Source of the DNA: Carcharhinus amblyrhynchos
Lineage: Eukaryota
DNA: 64,000 nucleotides
Assembly (NCBI GenBank): GCA_965287045.1
Contig: OZ336871.1
Coordinates: 127,968,001-128,032,000 of the forward strand
Direction of reading: 5' to 3'
Part shown: one piece after another, positions 1 through 59,324 of the stretch
Layout: each line of letters opens with the position of its first letter
How positions within the stretch are numbered: position 1 is the stretch's first letter
The notes under the pieces: model-generated
Told to the model about the DNA's origin: nothing
Database searches by the model: none
Seen by the model: only the letters and a program-made list of their open reading frames with translations
Translations under genes and position numbers: made by a program

Positions 1-747
1 CCACCTGATCAGCAGCCTGCATTAGAAAGGTGATGTACTGCTGTCTGTGAAGAGGCCACCTATCAGCTGTGAGATAGCCATATGCCCAGCAAACCAACTG
101 ATATTTAATGCCATCTGTTGTATCCCAGAGTGAGCCTGAGGCATTAAAGACATTCACATTCATAGGCAGTGCTATCCTTGCATTTGGCGCCAGTTCCTGC
201 TGCAACAGGTTATGTTGGTCAGTGACTGCCTGTCTGCTGAAGTACAGCTCCTCATTCACTGCTTCACTGTCACATGAGATAGGCCATCCTGTTGAGAAAG
301 TGTTGCATGCTGTCAGGCTGCCTTTGTCCTTTTTTAGAGCCAGTGGAGGTCTGTGCATCCATGCTTATCATTTTTTTCTGCCGTGACTCTCTGTGGTAAT
401 CTCAGCAACACTCCCCTCTGCATTGCTGAAGCTGTCCAACAGCTATTTAGCATGAAAGACTTCCCAAACTCAGCAACAGTAGCCAGAAGTGGCCTTAAAT
501 TCTCCAGCAGCCAAAAATTACAACCAGGGACTTACCTTAATGGAGGTGGGGAATCATTTATTTATCACCGCTTCGGCAAGTTTCTTGAGCGTACACACTG
601 TGTTGTTCTGGGAGGGTTTACGAATGAGAAAATCAAATTCACCTATGCACCAATTTCCTAAAGGTTTCATTTTCAAAGAGAACATTGCTGATTCGAGGTG
701 GCCACCAGTGATGTCCAAGGGAGAACATTAGTTGGAGTGTAAAGTTG

Positions 748-1073
748 AGCGGCATGGTAGCATAGTGGTTAGCACTGCTGCTTCACAGCTCTAGCGTCCT
801 GGGTTTGATTCCCAGCTTGGGTCACTGAATGTGTGGAGTTTGCACATTCTCCTCGTGTCTGTGTGGGTTTCCTCCAGGTGCTCCGGTTTCTGCCCAGAGT
901 CCAAAGATGTGCGGGTTAGGTTGATTGGCCCTGCTAAGAAATTGTCCCTTAGTGTCCAGGGATGCATAGGTTAGAGGGATTACTGGATATGATATGGGGG
1001 TAGGGCCGTGGTGGGATTGTGTTCCATGCAGACTCGAAGGGCCTGTTTCTGCACTGTAGGGTTCTATGATTCT
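748..1073 (+). mobile_element. HE1-type V-SINE (tRNA-derived), full length
   Basis: tRNA-like head with A/B boxes (TAGCATAGTGG...GGTTTGATTCC), V-domain (TGTGTGGAGTTTGCACATTCTCC...GTGGGTTTCCTCC) and tail ending CTGCACTGTAGGGTTCTATGATTCT. Confidence 0.88.
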
Positions 1074-1645
1074 AAAAGTATGAAAGAAGTCTTGCTACAA
1101 CTGTACAGGCCAATGGTGTGATTGAGAGAACTGTGTATAGTTTTGGTGGCCTTACTTAAGCAGCAGCAATCTTGTATTGGATGTGGCTCAGAAAAGGCAC
1201 ATTGAGCTTATTCCTGGGATGCAGGATGAGCAGTCTGGGCCTACACTCATTGGCGTTTAGAAAAATTAGAAGTGATCTTATTGGAAGATATAGGATTCTG
1301 AGGGGGCTTGACAAGGTAGGTGCGTGGAGGATATTTCTCCTTATGGGAAATCTACAATTTGGGGACACAATTTAAAAAATGGGGTCTCATATATGATATA
1401 AATGAGGATGAATTTCTTCTCCTAGAGTGTCATTAGTGTTTGTTGTTCTCTTCCCCCAGTGAGCTGAGCAGTTATGTCATTGAATATATTCAAGGCTGAG
1501 TTAGACAGATTTTTGATTGATGAGGATGTGAAGGGTTATGGGGAACTGGCAAGAAAATGGAATTAAGGCAACATCAGATTAGCCATGATCTTATTGACTG
1601 GTGGTGCAAGCTCAAGGGGACAAATGGTCTACTCCTGCTCTGATT
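1074..1645 (+). mobile_element. Old CR1 LINE 3' fragment
   Basis: Degraded ORF2 C-terminus (LLQLY...LV, LGLHSLAFRKIRSDLI) plus a 3' UTR ending CTACTCCTGCTC. Confidence 0.8.
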
Positions 1646-2415
1646 TCGTACAGAAGGCTCTGTGTCTCACTACGAGGGACATTTGTAATAAGGTGGATGA
1701 ACTAACTGCACGGACAGTCATTGACAGATATGGTATAATTGGGATCACAGAGACCTCACTCCAGGGTGACCAAGAGTGGGGACTCAACATCCAGGGGTGT
1801 TCAATATTCAGTAAAGATAGATAGAAAGGAAAGTTGTGGGGGGGGGGGGAGGTGTTGGTGGGGTAGCATTGCTGGTTAGAGGCAATTAACACAATAGTAA
1901 GTAAGGACATTAGCCTGGTCAATGTGGAATCTTCATGGGTGGAACTGTGGAACATCAAAGGACAAATAACGCTATTGGGAGTGTGCGCAGACTACCAAAC
2001 AGTAGTAGAGGTTGGGGTTGGATCAAGCAGGAAATTAGAGATGCATGCTTTAAGGGTAGAGCATTTATTATGCGTGACTTCAATCTACAAATTGATTGGG
2101 CTCACCAGGAATATACAAGGGATGGTTTCCTTGACCAAAATGTTGAGGAACCAACTTGAGAGCAGGCCATCCTAGATAGGGTATTCTGTAATGAGAACGG
2201 ATTAATTAGCAACCTTGTAGTGCGAGACCCTTTGGGGAAGAGTGACCATAATATGATAGAATTTTTCATTAAGATGAAGAATTAGCTGAGACTAAGGTCC
2301 TGAACTTAAGGTAAGCTAACTCTGATGGTATGAGATGTGCGTTGGCTTGGATAAGCTGCCAAAGGATACTTAAGGGATTGACAGTGGATAGGCAATTTAA
2401 AGGCATTAAAGACAT

Positions 2416-2769
2416 GGGCGGCACGGTAGCACAGTGGTTTGGGTGGCACGGTAGCACAGTGGTTAACACTGCTGCTTCACAGCTCCAGGGACCTTGGTTT
2501 GATTCCCAACTCAGGTCACTGTCTGTGTGGAGTTTGCACATTCTCCTCGTGTCTGTGTGGGTTTCCTCTGGGTGCTCCAGTTTCCTCCTACAGTCCAATG
2601 ATGTGCGGGTTAGGTTGATTGGCCATGCTAAAGTTGCCTCTTAGTATCCTGGGATGCATAGGTTAGCGGGATTAGCGGGTAAATATGCAGGGATATGGGG
2701 TAGGGCCTGGGTGGGATTGCAGACTCGATGGGCCAAAGGGCTTCTTTCTGCACTGTAGGATTCTATGAC
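2416..2769 (+). mobile_element. HE1 V-SINE with a duplicated 5' end, inserted in CR1
   Basis: GGCACGGTAGCACAGTGGTT occurs twice in tandem, followed by the normal HE1 body and tail. Confidence 0.9.
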
Positions 2770-4049
2770 ACTTAAAAAAACGTATGGATGAACTTCAGCA
2801 ACTGTACATCCCTGTATGGCATAGAAGTAAAATGGGGAATGTGGCTCAATCATGGCTAACAAGGGAAATCAGGGATAATGTTCAAGCCAAAGAGAAGGCA
2901 TATAAATTGGCCAAAAAAAAAGCAAACCTGAGCACTGGGAGAAATTTACAATCCAGCAGAGGAGGACAAAGGGTTTAATTCAGAAATAGAAAATAGAATA
3001 TGAGAGTAAGCTTGCAGAAAACATAATAACTAACTGCAAAAGCTTCTACAGATATGTGAAGAAAACAAATGTAGGTTCCTTACAATTAGAATCAGGTGAA
3101 TTCATAATGGGCAACAAAAAGATAGCAGACCACCTGAACAAATACTTTACATCTGTCTTCACTAAGGAGGACACAAATAATCTTCCAGAAATACTAGTGA
3201 TCAGAGGGTCTAGCATGAAGGGCGAACTGAAGGAAATCCTCATTAGTCAAGAAATTGTATTCAGGAAATTGCTGGGATTAAAACGCGAGAAGTCCCCAGG
3301 GCCCGATGCTCTGCCTTCCTGAGTAAGGAAGTGGCCTTAGAAATAGTGGATGCATTGATGATCATTTTCTAGCATTCTATAGACTCTAGAAGAGCTTCAA
3401 TGGATTGGAGGGTAGCTAATGTAACCCCACTTTTTAAAAGAGGGAGATAGAAAACGGGGAATTACAGACCAGTTAGCCTGACATTGGTGGTGGGGAAAAT
3501 GGTGAAGTCAATTATTAAGGATATAGTAACTGAACATTTCGAAAGCGGTGACAGGATTGGCCCAAGTCAGTAATGGATTCACTAAAGGGAAATTGTGCTT
3601 GACAAATATTCTGGAATTTTTTGAGGATATGACCAGTAGAGTGGACAAGGGTGAACCAGTGGATGTTGTGTATCTGGACTTCCAAAAAGTTTTTGACAAG
3701 GTCCCACACAAGCGATTGGTGAGCAAAATTAAAATTCATGGTGTTGGGGATAATGTATTCACATGGATAGACAACTGGTCGGCAGACAGAAAGCAGAGAG
3801 TGGGAATAAATGGGTCCTTTTCAGAGTAGTAGGCAGTGATTAGTGGGGCACCATAGGGTTAACTGCTTGGGCCCCAGCTATTCACAATATACATTCATGA
3901 TTTGGGTGAAGAAATTGAATACAATATCTCCAAATTTGCAGACAACACTAAGCTGGGTGGCAGTGTGTGCTGTGAGGAGGATGCCAAGAGGCTGCAAGAT
4001 GAACTGGACAGGCTGGCTGAGTGGGCAAATAATTGGCAAATGCATTATA

Positions 4050-5234: not shown

Positions 5235-5430
5235 TGGCACAGTGGTTTGCTCTGCTGCCTCACGGTGCCTGGGATCTGGATTCCTTCTCCGGCTTGGGCC
5301 ACTGTCTGTGCAGAGTTAGTACTCACCTGATGATGGAGCAGCGCTCTGAAAGCTCGTGATTCCAAATAAACCTGTTGGACTTTAAGCTTGTGTGCCCACC
5401 CCAGTTCAAGGCTGGTATCTTTACATCATG
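5235..5430 (+). mobile_element. HE1 5' head joined to a Penelope-like terminal repeat containing a hammerhead motif
   Basis: 5235-5315 is a degenerate HE1 head. 5323-5359 reads TCAC-CTGATGA-T-GGAG..CTCT-GAAA-GCTC-GTGA, then AAATAAACCTGTTGGACTTTAA as in the 41 kb and 44 kb elements. Confidence 0.65.
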
Positions 5431-7010: not shown

Positions 7011-7095
7011 ATGGCGGACCGCAGCATTGATAGTCTAGCTCTTCCTCTCGAGGTGAGGGCGAAGCTAGCCGAGCTGGATTTGGAATTATCCGAAG
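7011..7095 (+). CDS. DIP2C: First coding exon of disco-interacting protein 2 homolog C (start of the DMAP1-binding domain); intron 1 starts at 7096 and runs past the window end
   Basis: ATG at 7011 gives MADRSIDSLALPLEVRAKLAELDLELSE+G, very close to the vertebrate DIP2C N-terminus as I recall it (MADRSLEGMALPLEVRARLAELELELSEG). It is followed by the donor GAAG|GTAAAA (85 nt, phase 1) and lies directly downstream of a CpG island. Confidence 0.93.
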
Positions 7096-39366: not shown

Positions 39367-41183
39367 ACCAAACTGTGACACATCCAAAAAGGATGCTTTC
39401 TGCGGTGCATCTGTAAAAGTTGGTGAGTGTCATAGTGGACATGTTGAGTTTCTTTACAGGTTATTTTGAAGCAAAAGGCCAAATGCTTTCTTTGTATCTG
39501 ATATCAATGCGGGAATGAAACCCAACTGTCTTCTGAGTTCTGATTTTGTGTTGGGGAGAGGGTGGGTGATTTACAATTTGTTCTGGAACACACGGGGAGA
39601 GCTATGCCTCGGATTCTAACGCTATGTGGTAAGAAATAATCAATGTTTGTACATCTCCATACATAACACCTTGAATTGAATCCTGTTCCTGAAAACCAAA
39701 ATTAAAAACTAACTGCCAGTTGTGTCAGATGGAGTCTTTTGATTTTGATTCTGACAATAGTGATGCTCCCTCAGAACCAAGGATTGCCTTAAATTTGTTT
39801 CATTGAAACATCTTTTGGATATTTGAATTCATTTTTGCTGTTTGATGGGTTGAATCACACTATGAACCATGAGGCAAGATTGGGATAGTCATGCTATTGA
39901 ACTCATTGTTTTCAAGTGTGGAACTTGTTTAATCTCCAGACCAAACTTTTTGCAAAGTTTCGTCTTGCTCTGAAACATAACTTCACTCTCCATCTAATCT
40001 CGCACTTCATGATTCATTCTTGACAAATTGCCTACCTAGGCTTGACATTTCTGTATCGCCAGCAGTTCAAAAACGATCAAATTTTACATTGCGTTTACTT
40101 GTCTCTTCTGTACTTATCCTTGTAATCCTCAATCCAATTCCGAACCATATATTCATCTGGCTGCTTTCGCTGCAGATGTTTCACATCTGGGAAAAATCCT
40201 CCTGATGTCAAAGATCACCTCATTTTATATTTTTCTTGACATATAAGTAGCATTGTATTATTAAACCCTCCTCCCCAATAATCATTTGCATGAAGGAAAA
40301 TAAATGCATCCTTGAATTTTTGTCACTGGTTTCATAAAGTGCTACTTTAATTGAGTTGCGTTTGTAAAGATAATTGGGGGGGCGGGTTTAACATTCGCAA
40401 GATGTTAATTATATTTTGTCTTAATTCATCTATTCATCCAGAAATACTCTACAATTCTTCTTATTTCAGCACATAATTGTTACTTGAATGATCCCAGGGT
40501 TTTCACCTCCACTACTCTAACTGAAAGTGTTGATTACTCTGTGATTGGCGTTAAATTGACCTTCCATGTAGTTTGAACCTGTGCCCCCTTGTCATACTGT
40601 TGCAATTTAATTTGAAGTAATATTCTGGATGTACCTTTTCCATTGCCATGACTATCTTGTAGATTGCTAAGATTACCCCTTAGTTACCCTCTTCATTAAA
40701 CTGAAAAACCCTACTTTCTTCAATCTTTCACCTGAACTGAGACCTTTGATATTATAAATCAGCATTGTGAGTCTTCTCTGCAGTGTGTACAGATTTTTAA
40801 TGTCTCTTCTTTCTCAGTGAAGAACCGATCACACTACTTAAAATGCAGTTGGAATAGAGCACTAATCACGACTCCCCTGACTTGCACTCTGCTGTTTTTC
40901 GCAATCTAGTTCAATAGTTTGTTGATTGCTTATCTACATATGGACCGTTTTGGGTGTCAAAGTTGGTAAGGTTGCTAGCGCTTCCAACTTCTTCTTTTAA
41001 TGCAACGCTTGTGAAGCAGATGTCATCCATTTTCCTTCCTCCGTGCAATGCTTCACAATTATCAATGGTTAAATGTCATCTTTCTTTCAGACAGTCCCCT
41101 GGGACGAAGGCTGACTTGGTTGCACTTCAGTGGGTTCTGAGGTGGCGGCTGAGTCCAATGCATCATCTGTGGACACTGCCACA

Positions 41184-42139
41184 GTAAAAGTCTCACGACG
41201 TCAGGTTAAAGTCCAACAGGTTTATTTAGTAGTAAACGCAGCTAGCTTTCGGAATGCTGTTCCTTCGTCAGGTGAGTGGAGAGTCCTGATCGCAAGCAGG
41301 GTGATCAGAACTCGCCACTCACCTGACAAAGGAACAGCGTTCTGAAACCCAGCCTGCAGGTGCAGCAGGTGGTCAGGAAGGCGAATGGGATGCTGGCCTT
41401 CATAGCGAGGGGGATTGAATATAAAAGTAGGGAGGTCTTGCTGCAGCTGTATAGGGCATTGGTGAGGCCGCAGCTGGAGTACTGTGTGCAGTTTTGGGCG
41501 CCGCACCTGCGCAAGGATATTTTGGCCTTGGAGGGAGTGCAGAGGAGGTTTACTAGGCTGATACCGGAGTTGAGGGGGTTGAACTATGAGGAGAGGCTGA
41601 ATAGACTAGGCTTGTACTCGTTGGAGTTTAGAAGAATGAGGGGAGATCTCATTGAGACGTATAAGATGATGAATGGGATGGATAGGATAGAGGTGGAGAG
41701 ACTCTTCCCGCTCAAAAAAGACAGTAGGACTAGGGGGCACAGCCTCAAGATAAAGGGGGGGCGGTTTAGAACGGAGTTGAGGAGGAACTTCTTCACTCAA
41801 AGGGTGGTGAATATCTGGAATTCTCTGCCCGTTGAAGTGGTGGAGGCTGCCTCGCTAAATATTTTTAAGAAGCGGGTTGATGGGTTTTTGATAAGAGAGG
41901 GGATTAAGGGTTATGGGGAGAGGGCGGGAAAGTGGAACTGAGCCACGACAGATCAGCCATGATCTTATTGAATGGCGGGGCAGGCTCGAAGGGCCAGATG
42001 GTCTACTCCTGCTCCTATTTCTTATGTTCTTATGTTCTTAGTGGCGTTTACTACTAAATAAACCTGTTGGACTTTAACCTGGTGTCGTGAGACTTCTTAC
42101 TGTGTTTACCTAAGTCCAATGCCAGCATCTCCATATAAT
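41184..42139. mobile_element. Inverted Penelope-type terminal-repeat element with hammerhead motifs, split by a CR1
   Basis: Left arm 41184-41291 is complementary to 41303-41347 plus 42039-42100. There is a 3' extension at 42101-42139 and a TSD GACACTGCCACA/GACTCTGCCTCA. Confidence 0.8.
41348..42038 (+). mobile_element. Young 5'-truncated CR1 LINE with open ORF2 C-terminus
   Basis: ORF 41360-41941 is uninterrupted to its natural stop and near-identical to 23304-24285. Confidence 0.95.
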
Positions 42140-44105: not shown

Positions 44106-44399
44106 CTCTAAATCTTTTAAATCAGGTGGCAAGAAATGTGATCCAACAGCACTGTCCCAAATCAACTTGTCTAGTATTGAGCTGTTTATTGCTTGAAACC
44201 AGCCCCACTGGAATGAACCTGTCCTCCATATCTCTTATACCAGACACCCAAAGCAAATTTCATTTACCACTGTTCTGTTCACATAAACATTTTGTCTAAT
44301 ATGTACTGTCCAACTTTTGTGATGCTTGAACATTTAATGTTGTTACCCTATGTATTTTATATAACCCCTAAATTCATCTAAAGTGCATTGATAAATTTG

Positions 44400-44614
44400 G
44401 TAAAAAGTCTGACAACACCAGGTTTTAGTCCAACCTATTTATTTGATAATATACTCACAAGCTTTCGAGGGGACTGCCTCTTCGTTCACCTGACGAAGAG
44501 GCAGTCCCCTCGAAAGCTTGTGAGTATATTATCAAATAAATAGGTTGGACTAAAACCTGGTGTTGTCAGACTTTTTACTGTGTTTACGCCAGTCCAATGC
44601 CGGCATACCCACAT
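44400..44614 (+). mobile_element. Penelope-type mini-element: perfect 86-bp palindrome, 36-nt extension, hammerhead motif
   Basis: Arms 44400-44485 and 44493-44578 are exact reverse complements. TSD CATTGATAAATTTG at 44386-44399 and 44615-44628. Confidence 0.88.
44486..44523 (+). ncRNA. Minimal type I hammerhead ribozyme motif (PLE-associated)
   Basis: Stem I UCAC/GUGA; core CUGACGA+A; stem II GAGG/CCUC; GAAA; palindromic AGCU stem III; UH site at 44518-44519. Confidence 0.7.
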
Positions 44615-47600
44615 CATTGATAAATTTGCACAGTACTGGTTGTAACACTGAAACTTGACACTCTTCCTGCCATGCCCCAGTGTACTCATTTGGCATATTT
44701 CCTTTTACAAATCCATGGTTTCCCTGCCGTTGCACAGTTCATCCATTTCGTTATCACCCTAAAATCTACCTTGAATCAAAAATCTTAACTTTTTTCCATG
44801 ACCGCCAATGTACCCCTCTCTCCTCCACTCCCTCCACAGTAATTGCATTGTTGACTTAGCTTGGCCTCCTATGATCAGTGAATTAAATTAACGCATGTCA
44901 TGTACAATCCTTCCTGCCTCAAGTTGATATGAAATGAGTGGGCGCAGGTCTGAATCCACATCCTGATTAATTCATATGACCATAATAATGTGCAGATCAA
45001 ATTTAGTCTGATAGCAACATCGTAATGGAAATTAACTCCAAAGGAACCCCTTCTACGGCAAAAGCAAAAATTTTGAAAAATGGCCCACTTGTGTGAATAG
45101 TAAGTGGTGATGTGACTTCAATTTAATTTTTTCCCTTTAAAGTAAGGAGCTTTGATTAAGCAGCAAAAACTGCTCATTGATGTGTGGTTGTGTCAAGTAT
45201 TGCTTTTCTGCTTAAAAGTTAATGTCTCTGCTATCTAGTTTGTATGTTCTTTTGAAAACAAAATATGTTGGTATATCAAATGATGCAGCACAACTCAAAA
45301 AGAACTCAACAATTTGTGTAGAGGTGCAATCTGAGCCTTCAGATTTTTATATTCCAGCAGGCTTGGCTCAAAGATTTCCTCTAAATAAGGAAGGGAGTTC
45401 CAGACGTTAGAATTTTCTGGGAGAGTGTTCCACAAGTACAGCATGTAAATCTTCACAGTTGGAATTGAATTGTTATAGAACATTCAGCTGGAACCGCTTT
45501 AGTATTTTTGGTTTAAGTATAAATCTGAAACTTCAGGGCAGTGCTGCTACAGTTGAAACTTTTGGAACGGATTGACAAACCCATGACATTGGCCAAGGGC
45601 ATAGGCAACTTGGCCTGTGACAACATTTTATTAGATCAGGTAGCTGTACGGCTTAAATCACAACTCTTTGCCCTTTCTCTGCCAATATAAGCATTATAGG
45701 TGAATTATATGAAAGCACAGGACTGGAAAAGATTTTTCAATCCCCTTTAGCCAGTTCTGTTGGTTCAGCCTGATCATTGTGTATTTCCTTCATTTTCCAT
45801 TGGACTCTTCCACACCATCTGTCTTCATTGACAATGCATTTCATACGTTCCAAACCCTTGGAATAAAGCAATTAAATCTGAACCCTCTTTATTTTAAGGG
45901 CATAGGCATGGTGGGCTGTAGACCCTGTTCCTGTGCGGTATTGTTCTTTGGTATCTTTGTTCTTTGTACATAGAATCTGCATATAGAGAAGACAGAAACA
46001 GGCCATTTAGCCCAACCAGTCCATGTTGGTTGTTGTGCTCCACTTGAGTCTTTTCTCATCTAAATCTATGGTAGATTATCATTGTAACCATCTATTCCTT
46101 CTCCCTCATGTTCTAGAATGGTTTCCTGTTGAATGCATATATACTGTTTACTTCACCCACTCCTGTGTAGTGCGTTCCACATTCTTGCCATTCTTTGGGT
46201 GAAGACATTTCTTTTGATTTCCGCTTTGAATTTCCTAGCGACTATCTTATATTGAATGCCTCTAGTTATGTGCTCTTCTCCACAAGAAACAAAATTCTCT
46301 TTCTATCTGTTCCATTAAAAGTTTTCATAATTTGAAAGACCCCAATCAGTCACCCTTCAGGCACCTTTTTTTCAGAGAGAAGTGACTCAATCTGTTCTTT
46401 TTCGTGATGATGCGTACCTACACATTTCTGGAATCATGCTACTAAATGTTTTCTGCACTCTCTCCAGTTCCCCTCTATTCTTTTCATAGTGGAGTTGAAT
46501 TTAGTGAGGGAATCGCAAAGATTAGGGTCAAGGCAGTTGAAGGCATGGGTCATGAATGATGGAGTGAAAGGAGGATGGGCATTTTGAAAGCAAGGCTTTG
46601 TCAGACTGAGAGCCAATGTAAGCGAGAGAATATTGTGTGACTTGGTGTAAGTTAGAATGTGGACAATGTTAACAACTTGCATTTATAAATTGCCTTTAGC
46701 TCATCCCATTGGAGCGCCATCAGGTTAAAGTTGACACCAAGCTAGTGATGGAGATATTGGGATAGGCGACCAAAGTTTGGTGAAAGGATTGGGCTTCGAG
46801 GGAGAGTTTGAAGGAAGATGAGGAATCAAGTAGGCAGAGCATGAAGAAAGCTGCAGTAGGAATTACAGCAACTGGGGAAAGAAGCTGTGCAAACAAATCA
46901 TATTTAGAGAGCTTCAGTTGCTTTTGACATGCTTATTGTACTCTTCTTTGTTAGACCATTCGGTGAGTTTGGTTATTCTGTGATTCTGGGAAATGCTGCA
47001 ACAAATTAATTGAGTCATAAATCCTAATCTAGATATCCTAATCCTAAATTCATCATAGTTGAACAATGTTGTATTTGAATTTAGCAAATGTAATTAATTC
47101 CATCTATCAGGCCAATTGAGTGGCTATTTATTTGTGTCAGAAGTCTATTTCTTACGGCTAAAATAGATTCTCCAGTGCACAATCAAGGGAACGTGTTGTT
47201 TTTAAATGCATTTTTTCTCATTGACTGCTAATGAATGTTCCATTGTGTTTTATGCTGGAATGTGGACCCCAACCTATTTATAGCATGAGGTACACTGGGT
47301 TCCTATTTCAGCATAAGAAGCACTTAAGTGTTCATTAAAAACGCATTAAACTAATTTGTCATTTCAATTTTTTTGTTGGTAAATTAGCTGACATAAACAT
47401 TGCAATAAAAGCTATCACCTTATTAAGTAAAACCAGCATCTACTCATGCTGTTCCTCAAACTGTGTTTAAATTGCTAAGTTTACTCAATGGACAGCTCGT
47501 AGTTGCTCTACTTCAGTTTTTACGTATCCCATACCCATTTCAGTATTTTTCATTAATGTTTAGTGAAAAATATATAATTTGAAGAAATTTAAAAATAAAA

Positions 47601-57200: not shown

Positions 57201-59324
57201 TAGGAGATTACAGGGATTGGGAACGTCCGAAATGTGGAGTTTTTTCAAGGAGCAGCTACTGCGAGTCTGTCATAGGTATGTCCCTGTCAGGCAAGGTGGA
57301 ATTGGTAAGGCTAGGGAACCGTGGTGCACCAAAAAAGTTGATTCGTTGGTTAAAAAGAAAAAGGAGGCTTATGTTCAGATGAGACGTGAGCACTCGGATA
57401 GTGCACTAGAGAGCTTTAGATTGGCTAGGAGGGAGTTGAGGAGGGAGTTGAAGAGCGAGCTAAGAAGGGCTAAAAGAGGACATGAGAAGACTTTGGCTGA
57501 TAGGGTTAAGGAGAATCCTAAGGCATTCTATAGGTATGTCAAGAACAGAAGGTTGGTTAGGGCCAGTTATAGACGGCAGAGGGAAGTTATGTGTGGAACC
57601 GGAGGAGATTGGTGAAGCATTGAACCAATATTTCTCTTCGGTGTTCACGCAGGGGGACATGGATATAGCTGAGGAGGACACTGGGTTGCAGGGGAGTAGA
57701 ATTGACAGTGTTACAGTTGATAAGGAGGATGTGCTGGATATTCTGGAGGGTCTGAAAATAGATAAGTCCCCTGGTCCGGATGGGATTTACCCCAGGATTC
57801 TCTGGGAGGCAAGAGAAGTGATTGCAGAGCCTCTGGCTCTGATCTTCAGGTCGTCGTTGGCCTCTGGTATAGTACCAGATGATTGGAGGTTAGCGAATGT
57901 TGTCCCATTGTTTAAGAAGGGGAACAGAGACTTCCCCAGGAATTATAGACCGGTGAGTCTCACTTCTGTTGTGGGCAAGGTTTTGGAAAAAATTATTAGG
58001 GATAGGATTTATAGTTATTTGGAGAGTAATGAGTTGATTGGAGATAGTCAGCATGGTTTTGTGGCGGGTAGGTCGTGCCTTACTAACCTTATTGAGTTTT
58101 TTGAGAAAGTGACCAAAGAGGTGGATGGGGGTAAGGCAGTGGACGTGGTGTATATGGATTTTAGTAAGGCGTTTGATAAGGTTCACCATGGTAGGCTTCT
58201 GCACAAAATGCAGATGTATGGGATTGGGGATGATCTAGGGAACTGGATTAGGAATTGGCTAGCGGATAGGAGACAGAGGGTAGTGGTTGACGGTAAATAT
58301 TCATCATGGAGTTCGGTTACAAGTGGTGTGCCTCAGGGATCTGTGTTGGGGCCACTGCTGTTTGTGATTTTTATTAATGATCTGGATGAGGGTATAGTTG
58401 GGTGGATCAGTAAATTTGCTGATGACACCAAAGTCGGAGGTGTGGTAGATAGTGAGGAAGGGTGTCATAGTTTGCAGGAAGACTTAGACAGGTTGCAGAG
58501 CTGGGCCGAGAGGTGGCGGATGGAGTTTAATGCAGAGAAATGTGAGGTAATTCACTTTGGTAGGAATAACAGATGTGTTGAGTATAGGGCTAACGGGAAG
58601 ACTTTGAATAGTGTGGAGGAGCAGAGGGATCTAGGTGTATGTGTACATAGATCCCTGAAAGTTGGGAATCAAGTAGATAAAGTTGTTAAGAAGGCATACA
58701 GTGTCTTGGCGTTTATTGGTAGGGGGATTGAATTTAGGAGTCGTAGCGTTATGTTGCAACTGTACACAACTCTGGTGCGGCCGCACTTGGAGTACTGTGT
58801 GCAGTTCTGGTCCCCACATTACAGGAAGGATGTGGAGGCTTTGGAGAGGGTGCAGAGGAGGTTTACCAGGATGTTGCCTGGTATGGAGGGGAGATCCTAT
58901 GAGGAGAGGCTGAGGGATTTGGGGTTGTTTTCGCTGGAAAGAAGGCGGCTAAGAGGGGATCTTATTGAAACATATAAGATGATTAGAGGTTTAGATAGGG
59001 TGGATAGTGATAGCCTTTTTCCTCTGATGGAAAAATCTAGCACGAGGGGGCATGGCTTTAAACTAAGGGGGGGGTAGTTATAGGACAGATGTCAGGGGTA
59101 GGTTCTTTACCCAGAGGGTGGTGAGGGATTGGAATGCCCTGCCTGCTGCAGTTGTAAATGCGCCTAGTTTGGGGGCGTTTAAGAGGTCTGTGGACAGGTT
59201 TATGGACGAAAAGGGATTGGTTTAGGTTAGTGGGTCATTGTTGTTGTTTTTTTTTAACTGGTCGGCGCAACATCGTGGGCCGAAGGGCCTGTTCTGCGCT
59301 GTAATGTTCTATGTTCTATGTTCT
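57201..59324 (+). mobile_element. Young HER1/CR1-type LINE, 5'-truncated, with uninterrupted RT domain
   Basis: ORF 57482-59077: KSPGPDG, NYRPVSLTS, QHGF, DFSKAFDKV, GVPQGSVLGPLLF, FADD. Frameshifts near 57560 and in the G-run at ~59075; tail (TGTTCTA)n. Confidence 0.97.

Follow-up and report, generated by a model that had tools for sequence, protein, structure and literature searches.

The insertion and its host gene

The window, i.e. the whole stretch of 64,000 nucleotides of the Carcharhinus amblyrhynchos genome that was analysed, contains a small palindromic insertion in an intron of a DIP2-family gene. The features of the locus are listed below; q coordinates run along the sense strand of the element, with q1 at window position 44486, and pLTR stands for the pseudo-LTR of Penelope-like elements (PLEs).

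7011..7095, plus strand: first coding exon of the host gene, DIP2 family (Pfam DMAP_binding, profile positions 2-22, E 7e-4, below the cut-off)
44386..44399, no strand: left copy of the target-site duplication (TSD), apparently 14 bp, found once at the empty site of runs X5 and X6
44400..44485, minus strand: tailless inverted arm, antisense pLTR q8-q93, reverse complement of the right arm
44486..44492, plus strand: 7-nt centre, sense pLTR q1-q7, overlapping the left arm by 1 nt at 44485
44493..44578, plus strand: right arm, sense pLTR q8-q93, exact reverse complement of the left arm
44579..44617, plus strand: PLE 'tail', 36 nt plus 3 nt in common with the right repeat
44615..44628, no strand: right TSD copy, direct repeat of 44386-44399
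44484..44525, plus strand: minimal type I hammerhead motif, identified by sequence, of the type described in the accessible text of PMC4209133
44484-44489 with 44520-44525, plus strand: hammerhead stem I, by sequence
44490-44496, plus strand: hammerhead core, followed by an extra A at 44497, by sequence
44498-44501 with 44508-44511, plus strand: hammerhead stem II, by sequence
44512-44515, plus strand: hammerhead GAAA, then the palindromic AGCU, with a predicted cut after 44519, by sequence

The insert totals 229 bp, with the two arms (44400-44485 and 44493-44578) being exact reverse complements over 86 of 86 positions around the 7-nt loop 44486-44492. The predicted fold of this palindrome is far stronger than that of shuffled sequences (z = -28, with 0/200 shuffles matching it). 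The locus contains one full hammerhead motif plus an inverted partial copy, and its tailed arm is the longer one by 7-8 nt. An earlier note on this DNA had described an 86-bp perfect palindrome with a 36-nt extension and a 14-bp TSD, and the coordinates given there prove exact. The repeat is real, with the refinement that three letters (44615-44617) fit both the right repeat and the 3' end of the element, which makes the extension 36-39 nt long. The seven bases directly 3' of the right repeat (44629-44635) are the reverse complement of q91-97, which lies beside the end of the left arm; base counts at other targets give no strong consensus, and this likeness may be due to chance or reflect priming homology.

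Contigs from two related organisms (runs X5 and X6) join 44385 to 44615 and contain the repeat once, differing from the window by 9 and 19 letters, respectively, over about 840 bases; one of these two relatives without the insertion is approximately 1% diverged. An empty site with a single repeat identifies the direct repeat as a true target duplication, and since the orthologous site is empty in related organisms, the insertion is young, as had been claimed before. The left junction is carried by runs X1 and X4 and the right junction by X1 as well, the junctions of the insert being spanned by short-read contigs.

The position of the element relative to the host gene follows from the exons on either side. 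The next DMAP exon (profile positions 22-62) is found at C2:128299999, some 288 kb downstream of the element, and a further DMAP-binding exon is located about 300 kb downstream. The element is thus situated in the first coding intron, in the sense orientation. The previous placement in intron 1 of DIP2C, in sense, is upheld as regards the first coding intron, the orientation and the DIP2 family, and as to the paralog, the gene is, judging from the N-terminus, presumably DIP2C. The effect of the insertion on the host gene is likely nil, except for an 86-bp double-stranded intronic hairpin.

Other traces of mobile elements occur in the window. An inverted pair of the same PLE kind, older and diverged, is formed by 41180-41275 (minus strand) and 42056-42139 (plus strand), with the tailless arm on the left, the tailed arm on the right and a LINE-like reverse transcriptase (RT) fragment (41327-41941) between them. 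Another old piece of pLTR, at 5323-5393 (plus strand), contains a hammerhead core and is about 69% similar to the young family. LINE-like RT fragments are numerous across the intron, the longest being an open stretch of 537 amino acids (57464-59077, plus strand).

The element family and its autonomous members

The insertion belongs to a very numerous family. Its sense part (q1-132) occurs at nine genomic places with 100% identity, the window's own included, and a 22-mer taken from the arm has 10,295 exact matches genome-wide (control 0). Family insertions form a continuum from arms of about 20 bases up to tandem units of 3,024 bp, the upstream part of the longer copies encoding a GIY-YIG domain and an RT. 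The tail runs, in long copies, into the start codon of the ORF (q131-133; 94 places), and tandem units are spaced 3,024-3,026 bp apart, which represents the partial-tandem organization of the source copies. Uninterrupted RT + GIY-YIG frames of 893 amino acids are present between pLTR copies at two loci:

L225, 1268-7910: tandem full units with one uninterrupted 893-aa frame
L226, 1430-8517: tandem full units with two uninterrupted 893-aa frames

The pLTRs of these two loci are 93-95% similar to that of the window, and that of a third, L229, is 98% similar, with broken frames. The RT assignment is backed by a Pfam match of an intact 893-aa frame to RVT_1 (E 5e-10); GIY-YIG scored above the cut-off on the translation of L032 and went undetected by Pfam in three others. 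Translations of long copies display a CX4CxxC linker between the RT and the endonuclease. A CX2-5CxxC linker marks the Neptune and Nematis clades according to the available portion of PMC8557442, so the element is classified here as Neptune-type by a linker that cannot separate Neptune from Nematis. The closest named protein relatives come from sharks (80-91%). Judging from the uninterrupted frames, the family has likely retained its mobility.

The earlier note had proposed an extremely truncated PLE insertion as one of two possibilities, and this is the one that holds: the autonomous RT + GIY-YIG partner it called for was found in the genome-wide search, with an intact 893-aa frame, and the terminal letters are common to both. 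We estimate at about 85% the probability that the locus is a recent, extremely 5'-truncated Neptune-type PLE insertion whose hammerhead is silent. It stands at the shortest end of a continuum of insertions of this family, is one of thousands, and is likely inert.

The RNA from which the window insertion was copied would, on this reading, be that of a full element. An improbable alternative is a retrozyme-like RNA of the same family that was short and internally deleted. Derivatives of this sort are described in the available part of bioRxiv 10.64898/2026.07.22.740005, and candidates exist in the genome. At one locus (L228; G000:C21:4179500-4184500), positions 670-3815 are occupied by a 288-bp unit in four inverted and eight direct copies, the unit being a pLTR with hammerhead, tail and ORF start that is internally deleted; one end of the multimer is tailed and the other tailless, the same two-armed layout as in the window copy. 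This is a retrozyme-like multimer, perhaps copied from a circular or multimeric RNA. A further locus, L004, holds a 294-bp repeat. However, the L228 unit has another stem II type, and the type seen in the window is found on long ORF-bearing copies (L002, L005 and L229), although the shortness of the window copy leaves autonomous and deleted source RNAs indistinguishable. The window insertion resembles the non-LTR retrozymes of the same preprint in being non-coding, hammerhead-bearing and PLE-derived, but retrozymes are defined there, as far as its accessible text goes, as head-to-tail tandems in which every unit has a full hammerhead, and two or more consecutive units of this kind do not occur at the window locus.

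The hammerhead motif

The earlier note gave the letters of the hammerhead, and its predicted cut after 44519, correctly. Searching the genome for the exact core pattern gives 43,977 matches (control 0). A set of 153 anchors was reduced to 132 true arms by setting aside 21 false ones; CUGANGA is kept in 126 of these 132, and a G at the cut position occurs in 0/131 parsed arms. Stem II varies across subfamilies by swaps that keep the pairs (GAGG/CCUC, GGGG/CCCC, GGAG/CUCC and GGAA/UUCC), as seen by eye; a MAFFT alignment of ribozyme variants gapped stem II and was left out of the pair counts. As most copies are young, the conservation of the motif says little about selection on individual copies. 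An Rfam scan of 44200-44800 detected no hammerhead family at E <= 10, which is expected of a minimal motif inside a long hairpin, and sub-threshold matches to miRNA and snoRNA hairpins were dismissed as a by-product of that hairpin. Compared with the minimal PLE hammerheads in the accessible text of PMC4209133, where sharks go unnamed, the shark motif has the same core features, but its stem II comprises 4 bp rather than the 7-8 bp reported for Schistosoma.

Folding gives stem II a pair probability of 3e-23 in the window copy, and forcing the ribozyme fold changes the energy from -169.8 to -107.5 kcal/mol, at a cost of about 62 kcal/mol. Outside a palindrome, as in L002, stems I and II do form in the predicted fold. 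The left arm is therefore predicted to bury the window hammerhead and keep it silent here, and the folding backs the previously suggested masking of the ribozyme by its own antisense arm. Transcription of the host gene would produce the left arm ahead of the ribozyme, with which it would pair in the pre-mRNA.

An extremely improbable alternative is that the hammerhead, being sense, cuts the host pre-mRNA, or that a regulatory function has preserved the hairpin. An intact motif in the orientation of the gene speaks for this, as do its stems I and II, which are predicted to fold when outside a palindrome (L002). Against this, the antisense arm would be transcribed first and pair with the motif; single minimal hammerheads are reported not to cleave in vitro in the part of PMC4209133 available to us; and the anole hammerhead needed its protein, according to the accessible text of PMC11167929. 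The insertion is, furthermore, missing from the two relatives mentioned above, including the one about 1% diverged, and its motif is one of tens of thousands.

A footprint of cleavage in vivo was suggested by two copies starting exactly at q35, an idea abandoned because 5' ends genome-wide show no spike at the cut site: 47 were counted at q31/32, 71 at q34/35 and 129 at q37/38, with patterns that differ in length and also catch small deletions. Such 5' ends agree with cleavage being unneeded for insertion in vitro, as stated in the available part of PMC11167929.

In an older subfamily (L041-L043), a native perfect hairpin of 8-9 bp is located just upstream of the hammerhead, whose catalytic core it is predicted to bury, and at this place the young subfamilies carry two mismatches. 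This hairpin may be an off-switch for the ribozyme.

Formation of the inverted arms

The recurrence of short palindromes raises the question whether they constitute an entity of their own, i.e. a self-propagating, non-autonomous ribozyme retroposon moved as a 229-bp unit. Some observations could be read in this sense: the 23-nt junction of the window has 12 exact matches (control 0), and the stem II arms are separated by no more than 30 nt at 291 loci, and by a still narrower centre at 118. However, three of the 12 matches are not inverted and represent the native sequence of an older subfamily, while the other nine, the window included, are inverted, comprise at least four stem II types and vary in their arm ends and tail side, the tail being on the opposite arm in L037, L044 and L149. 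Inspection of all 12 revealed no other copy identical to that of the window. Arm lengths, moreover, form a continuum up to full units. A separate mini-element is thus very improbable, and a mini-family with a fixed junction is rejected in view of the several subfamilies and the varying arm ends and tail sides. The distinct non-autonomous family proposed in the earlier note does not survive its own test, inversion points being spread from q-1014 to q111, and the copies do not share an exact length and inversion point, the same junction being found in different subfamilies. Among the 50 matches listed for each centre class there are many different junctions, with a version of the junction hairpin that keeps both mismatches in 4/50 of those listed for centres of up to 30 nt. 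An imperfect pairing that q-7..0 can form with q8..15 accounts for the recurrence of the window junction. The seemingly common breakpoint at q-513 proved an artefact of a reference that spanned its own inversion and disappeared with other natural references.

Many of the shortest palindromes (L060-L074 and matches listed) are centred exactly on the AGCU of the hammerhead or on its stem II loop. The self-complementary parts of the ribozyme appear to act as joining sites.

An unbiased sample was built on contig C1, where the first 100 exact matches gave 77 stretches, or 72 after five overlapping ones were dropped. With thresholds of 85% identity to a natural reference for each arm and of -40 to 60 for the junction gap, we recognized 39 inverted pairs in these 72 stretches, about half of the stretches being without a pair by these criteria; junctions were taken as BLAST ends, hand-checked in part. 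Without exception (39/39), one arm ends at q127-132 (tailed) and the other at q76-108 (tailless), the latter end falling at q92-102 in 34/39 pairs. The tailless arm reaches farther 5' in 27 pairs and the tailed arm in nine, with three ties (binomial p = 0.004). The arms overlap at the junction by 1-5 nt in 24/39 pairs. The locus L225 has a tailless arm of about 6 kb facing a short tailed one. Two biased sets are closer to even, with 15 tailless-longer and 13 tailed-longer pairs, 10 ties and one pair without a tail in the first (n=39), and 14 tailless-longer and nine tailed-longer pairs, one tie and one double-tailed pair in the second (n=25); they still exclude pure fold-back, but more weakly. 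Among the 101 pairs counted, all of which show a direct repeat of 11 bp or more, the TSD measures 12 bp in 46 and 13 bp in 30 (range 11-16). Arm types are identical in 35 of 43 typed pairs, as a single template or fold-back would also predict, and the arms differ at subfamily-diagnostic letters in three (L017, L129 with two such letters, and L156); those of L105 differ at such letters as well.

These statistics bear on the rival to the mechanism we prefer, in which the same element would form its palindrome by self-priming: one cDNA folds back at a small hairpin and copies itself, reaching to about 36-39 nt from the cDNA start. Self-priming has been proposed for PLE palindromes (accessible text of PMC3846280), and several traits of the window copy suit it, namely the loop on the tailed arm, the identical arms and a junction at a hairpin closing with G-T pairs on the cDNA strand, as does the recurrence of the mismatch-keeping version among the matches listed. 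Being tailed-arm-longer, the window copy alone fits fold-back equally well. However, fold-back of a tail-primed cDNA leaves only the tailed arm longer, so most pairs call for two strands primed separately, barring a later asymmetric deletion across the palindrome centre, which could mimic some tailless-longer cases and microhomologies. The window junction with the tail on the other arm (L037, L044 and L149) likewise speaks against self-priming, and arms that are chimeric between subfamilies are not expected from the copying of one cDNA. Self-priming as the source of the palindromes is hence rather unlikely.

We consider it somewhat better than an even bet that priming from both target nicks is the main route of the family. 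The fuller account, which we would place slightly above even odds, is that the inverted ends of PLEs arise by double target-primed reverse transcription, with the cDNAs joined at self-complementary spots, several of which belong to the stems and the palindrome of the hammerhead itself. The GIY-YIG endonuclease would make a staggered cut in both strands, about 12 bases apart. One 3' end would prime at the distal start (q129-132), beside the AUG of the ORF, and the other at a proximal start (about q93-100), some 36 nt upstream, the template being either one RNA or two pLTR copies. Both cDNAs would stop early, in the window copy at about q0 and q8, and their 3' ends would be joined via short complementarity, here at the recurrent site formed by the imperfect hairpin of q-7..0 with q8..15, followed by fill-in by host repair. 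The cDNA hairpin at this junction is weak by folding (-1.2 kcal/mol), which counts against the account.

Double priming of this kind resembles LINE-1 twin priming, in which synthesis starts from both target nicks, microhomology joins the pieces and the TSD is retained. It differs in that the inverted piece of L1 lacks a duplication of the 3' end, whereas the shark arms carry the same pLTR stretch.

Precedents for parts of this scheme exist among PLEs. The element PAc of Anolis (Poseidon) has been reported to cut and extend both target strands in vitro and to have two RT starts, which define the tail (PMC11167929); the portions of that paper available to us do not invoke the two-strand extension for the inverted arms. 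The shark family is like PAc in having two RT starts a tail's length apart. The starts of PAc, however, lie within an ORF that begins in stem II, according to the same text, whereas in the shark family the AUG directly adjoins the distal start, with the hammerhead some 100 nt upstream. The known PLE layout of an inverted, 5'-truncated pLTR, a one-sided tail of 30-40 bp and a TSD is described in the accessible parts of PMC8557442 and PMC3846280. As far as these texts go, the shark insertions share with EN+ PLE units, including Pen2a of Adineta, the head-to-head ends, one-sided tail and TSD, as well as the partial tandems, the tail continuing into the ORF start and the hammerhead in the pLTR. 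They differ in that both arms of the shark insertion are cut to about 90-130 bases, giving an 86-bp perfect palindrome, in the prevailing TSD length (12-13 bp versus 8-10 bp in the Adineta cases), and in the family being very large and young, with intact sources. A search of the openly available literature found no paper on shark PLE palindromes or on PLE twin priming.

The value of the locus is as a footprint of how inverted pLTRs and one-sided tails are formed in PLEs, an origin called open in the accessible parts of PMC8557442 and PMC11167929, and the junction statistics of the family separate the two main models of this origin. If double priming is true, a young shark family with intact sources and thousands of clean two-armed footprints records it genome-wide. 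Young, near-perfect palindromes with a short spacer number at least in the hundreds in this vertebrate genome (two narrow classes of centre account for 291 and 118 loci) and, together with some 44,000 hammerhead-core motifs, bear on the load of double-stranded RNA and on the stability of palindromes in sharks.
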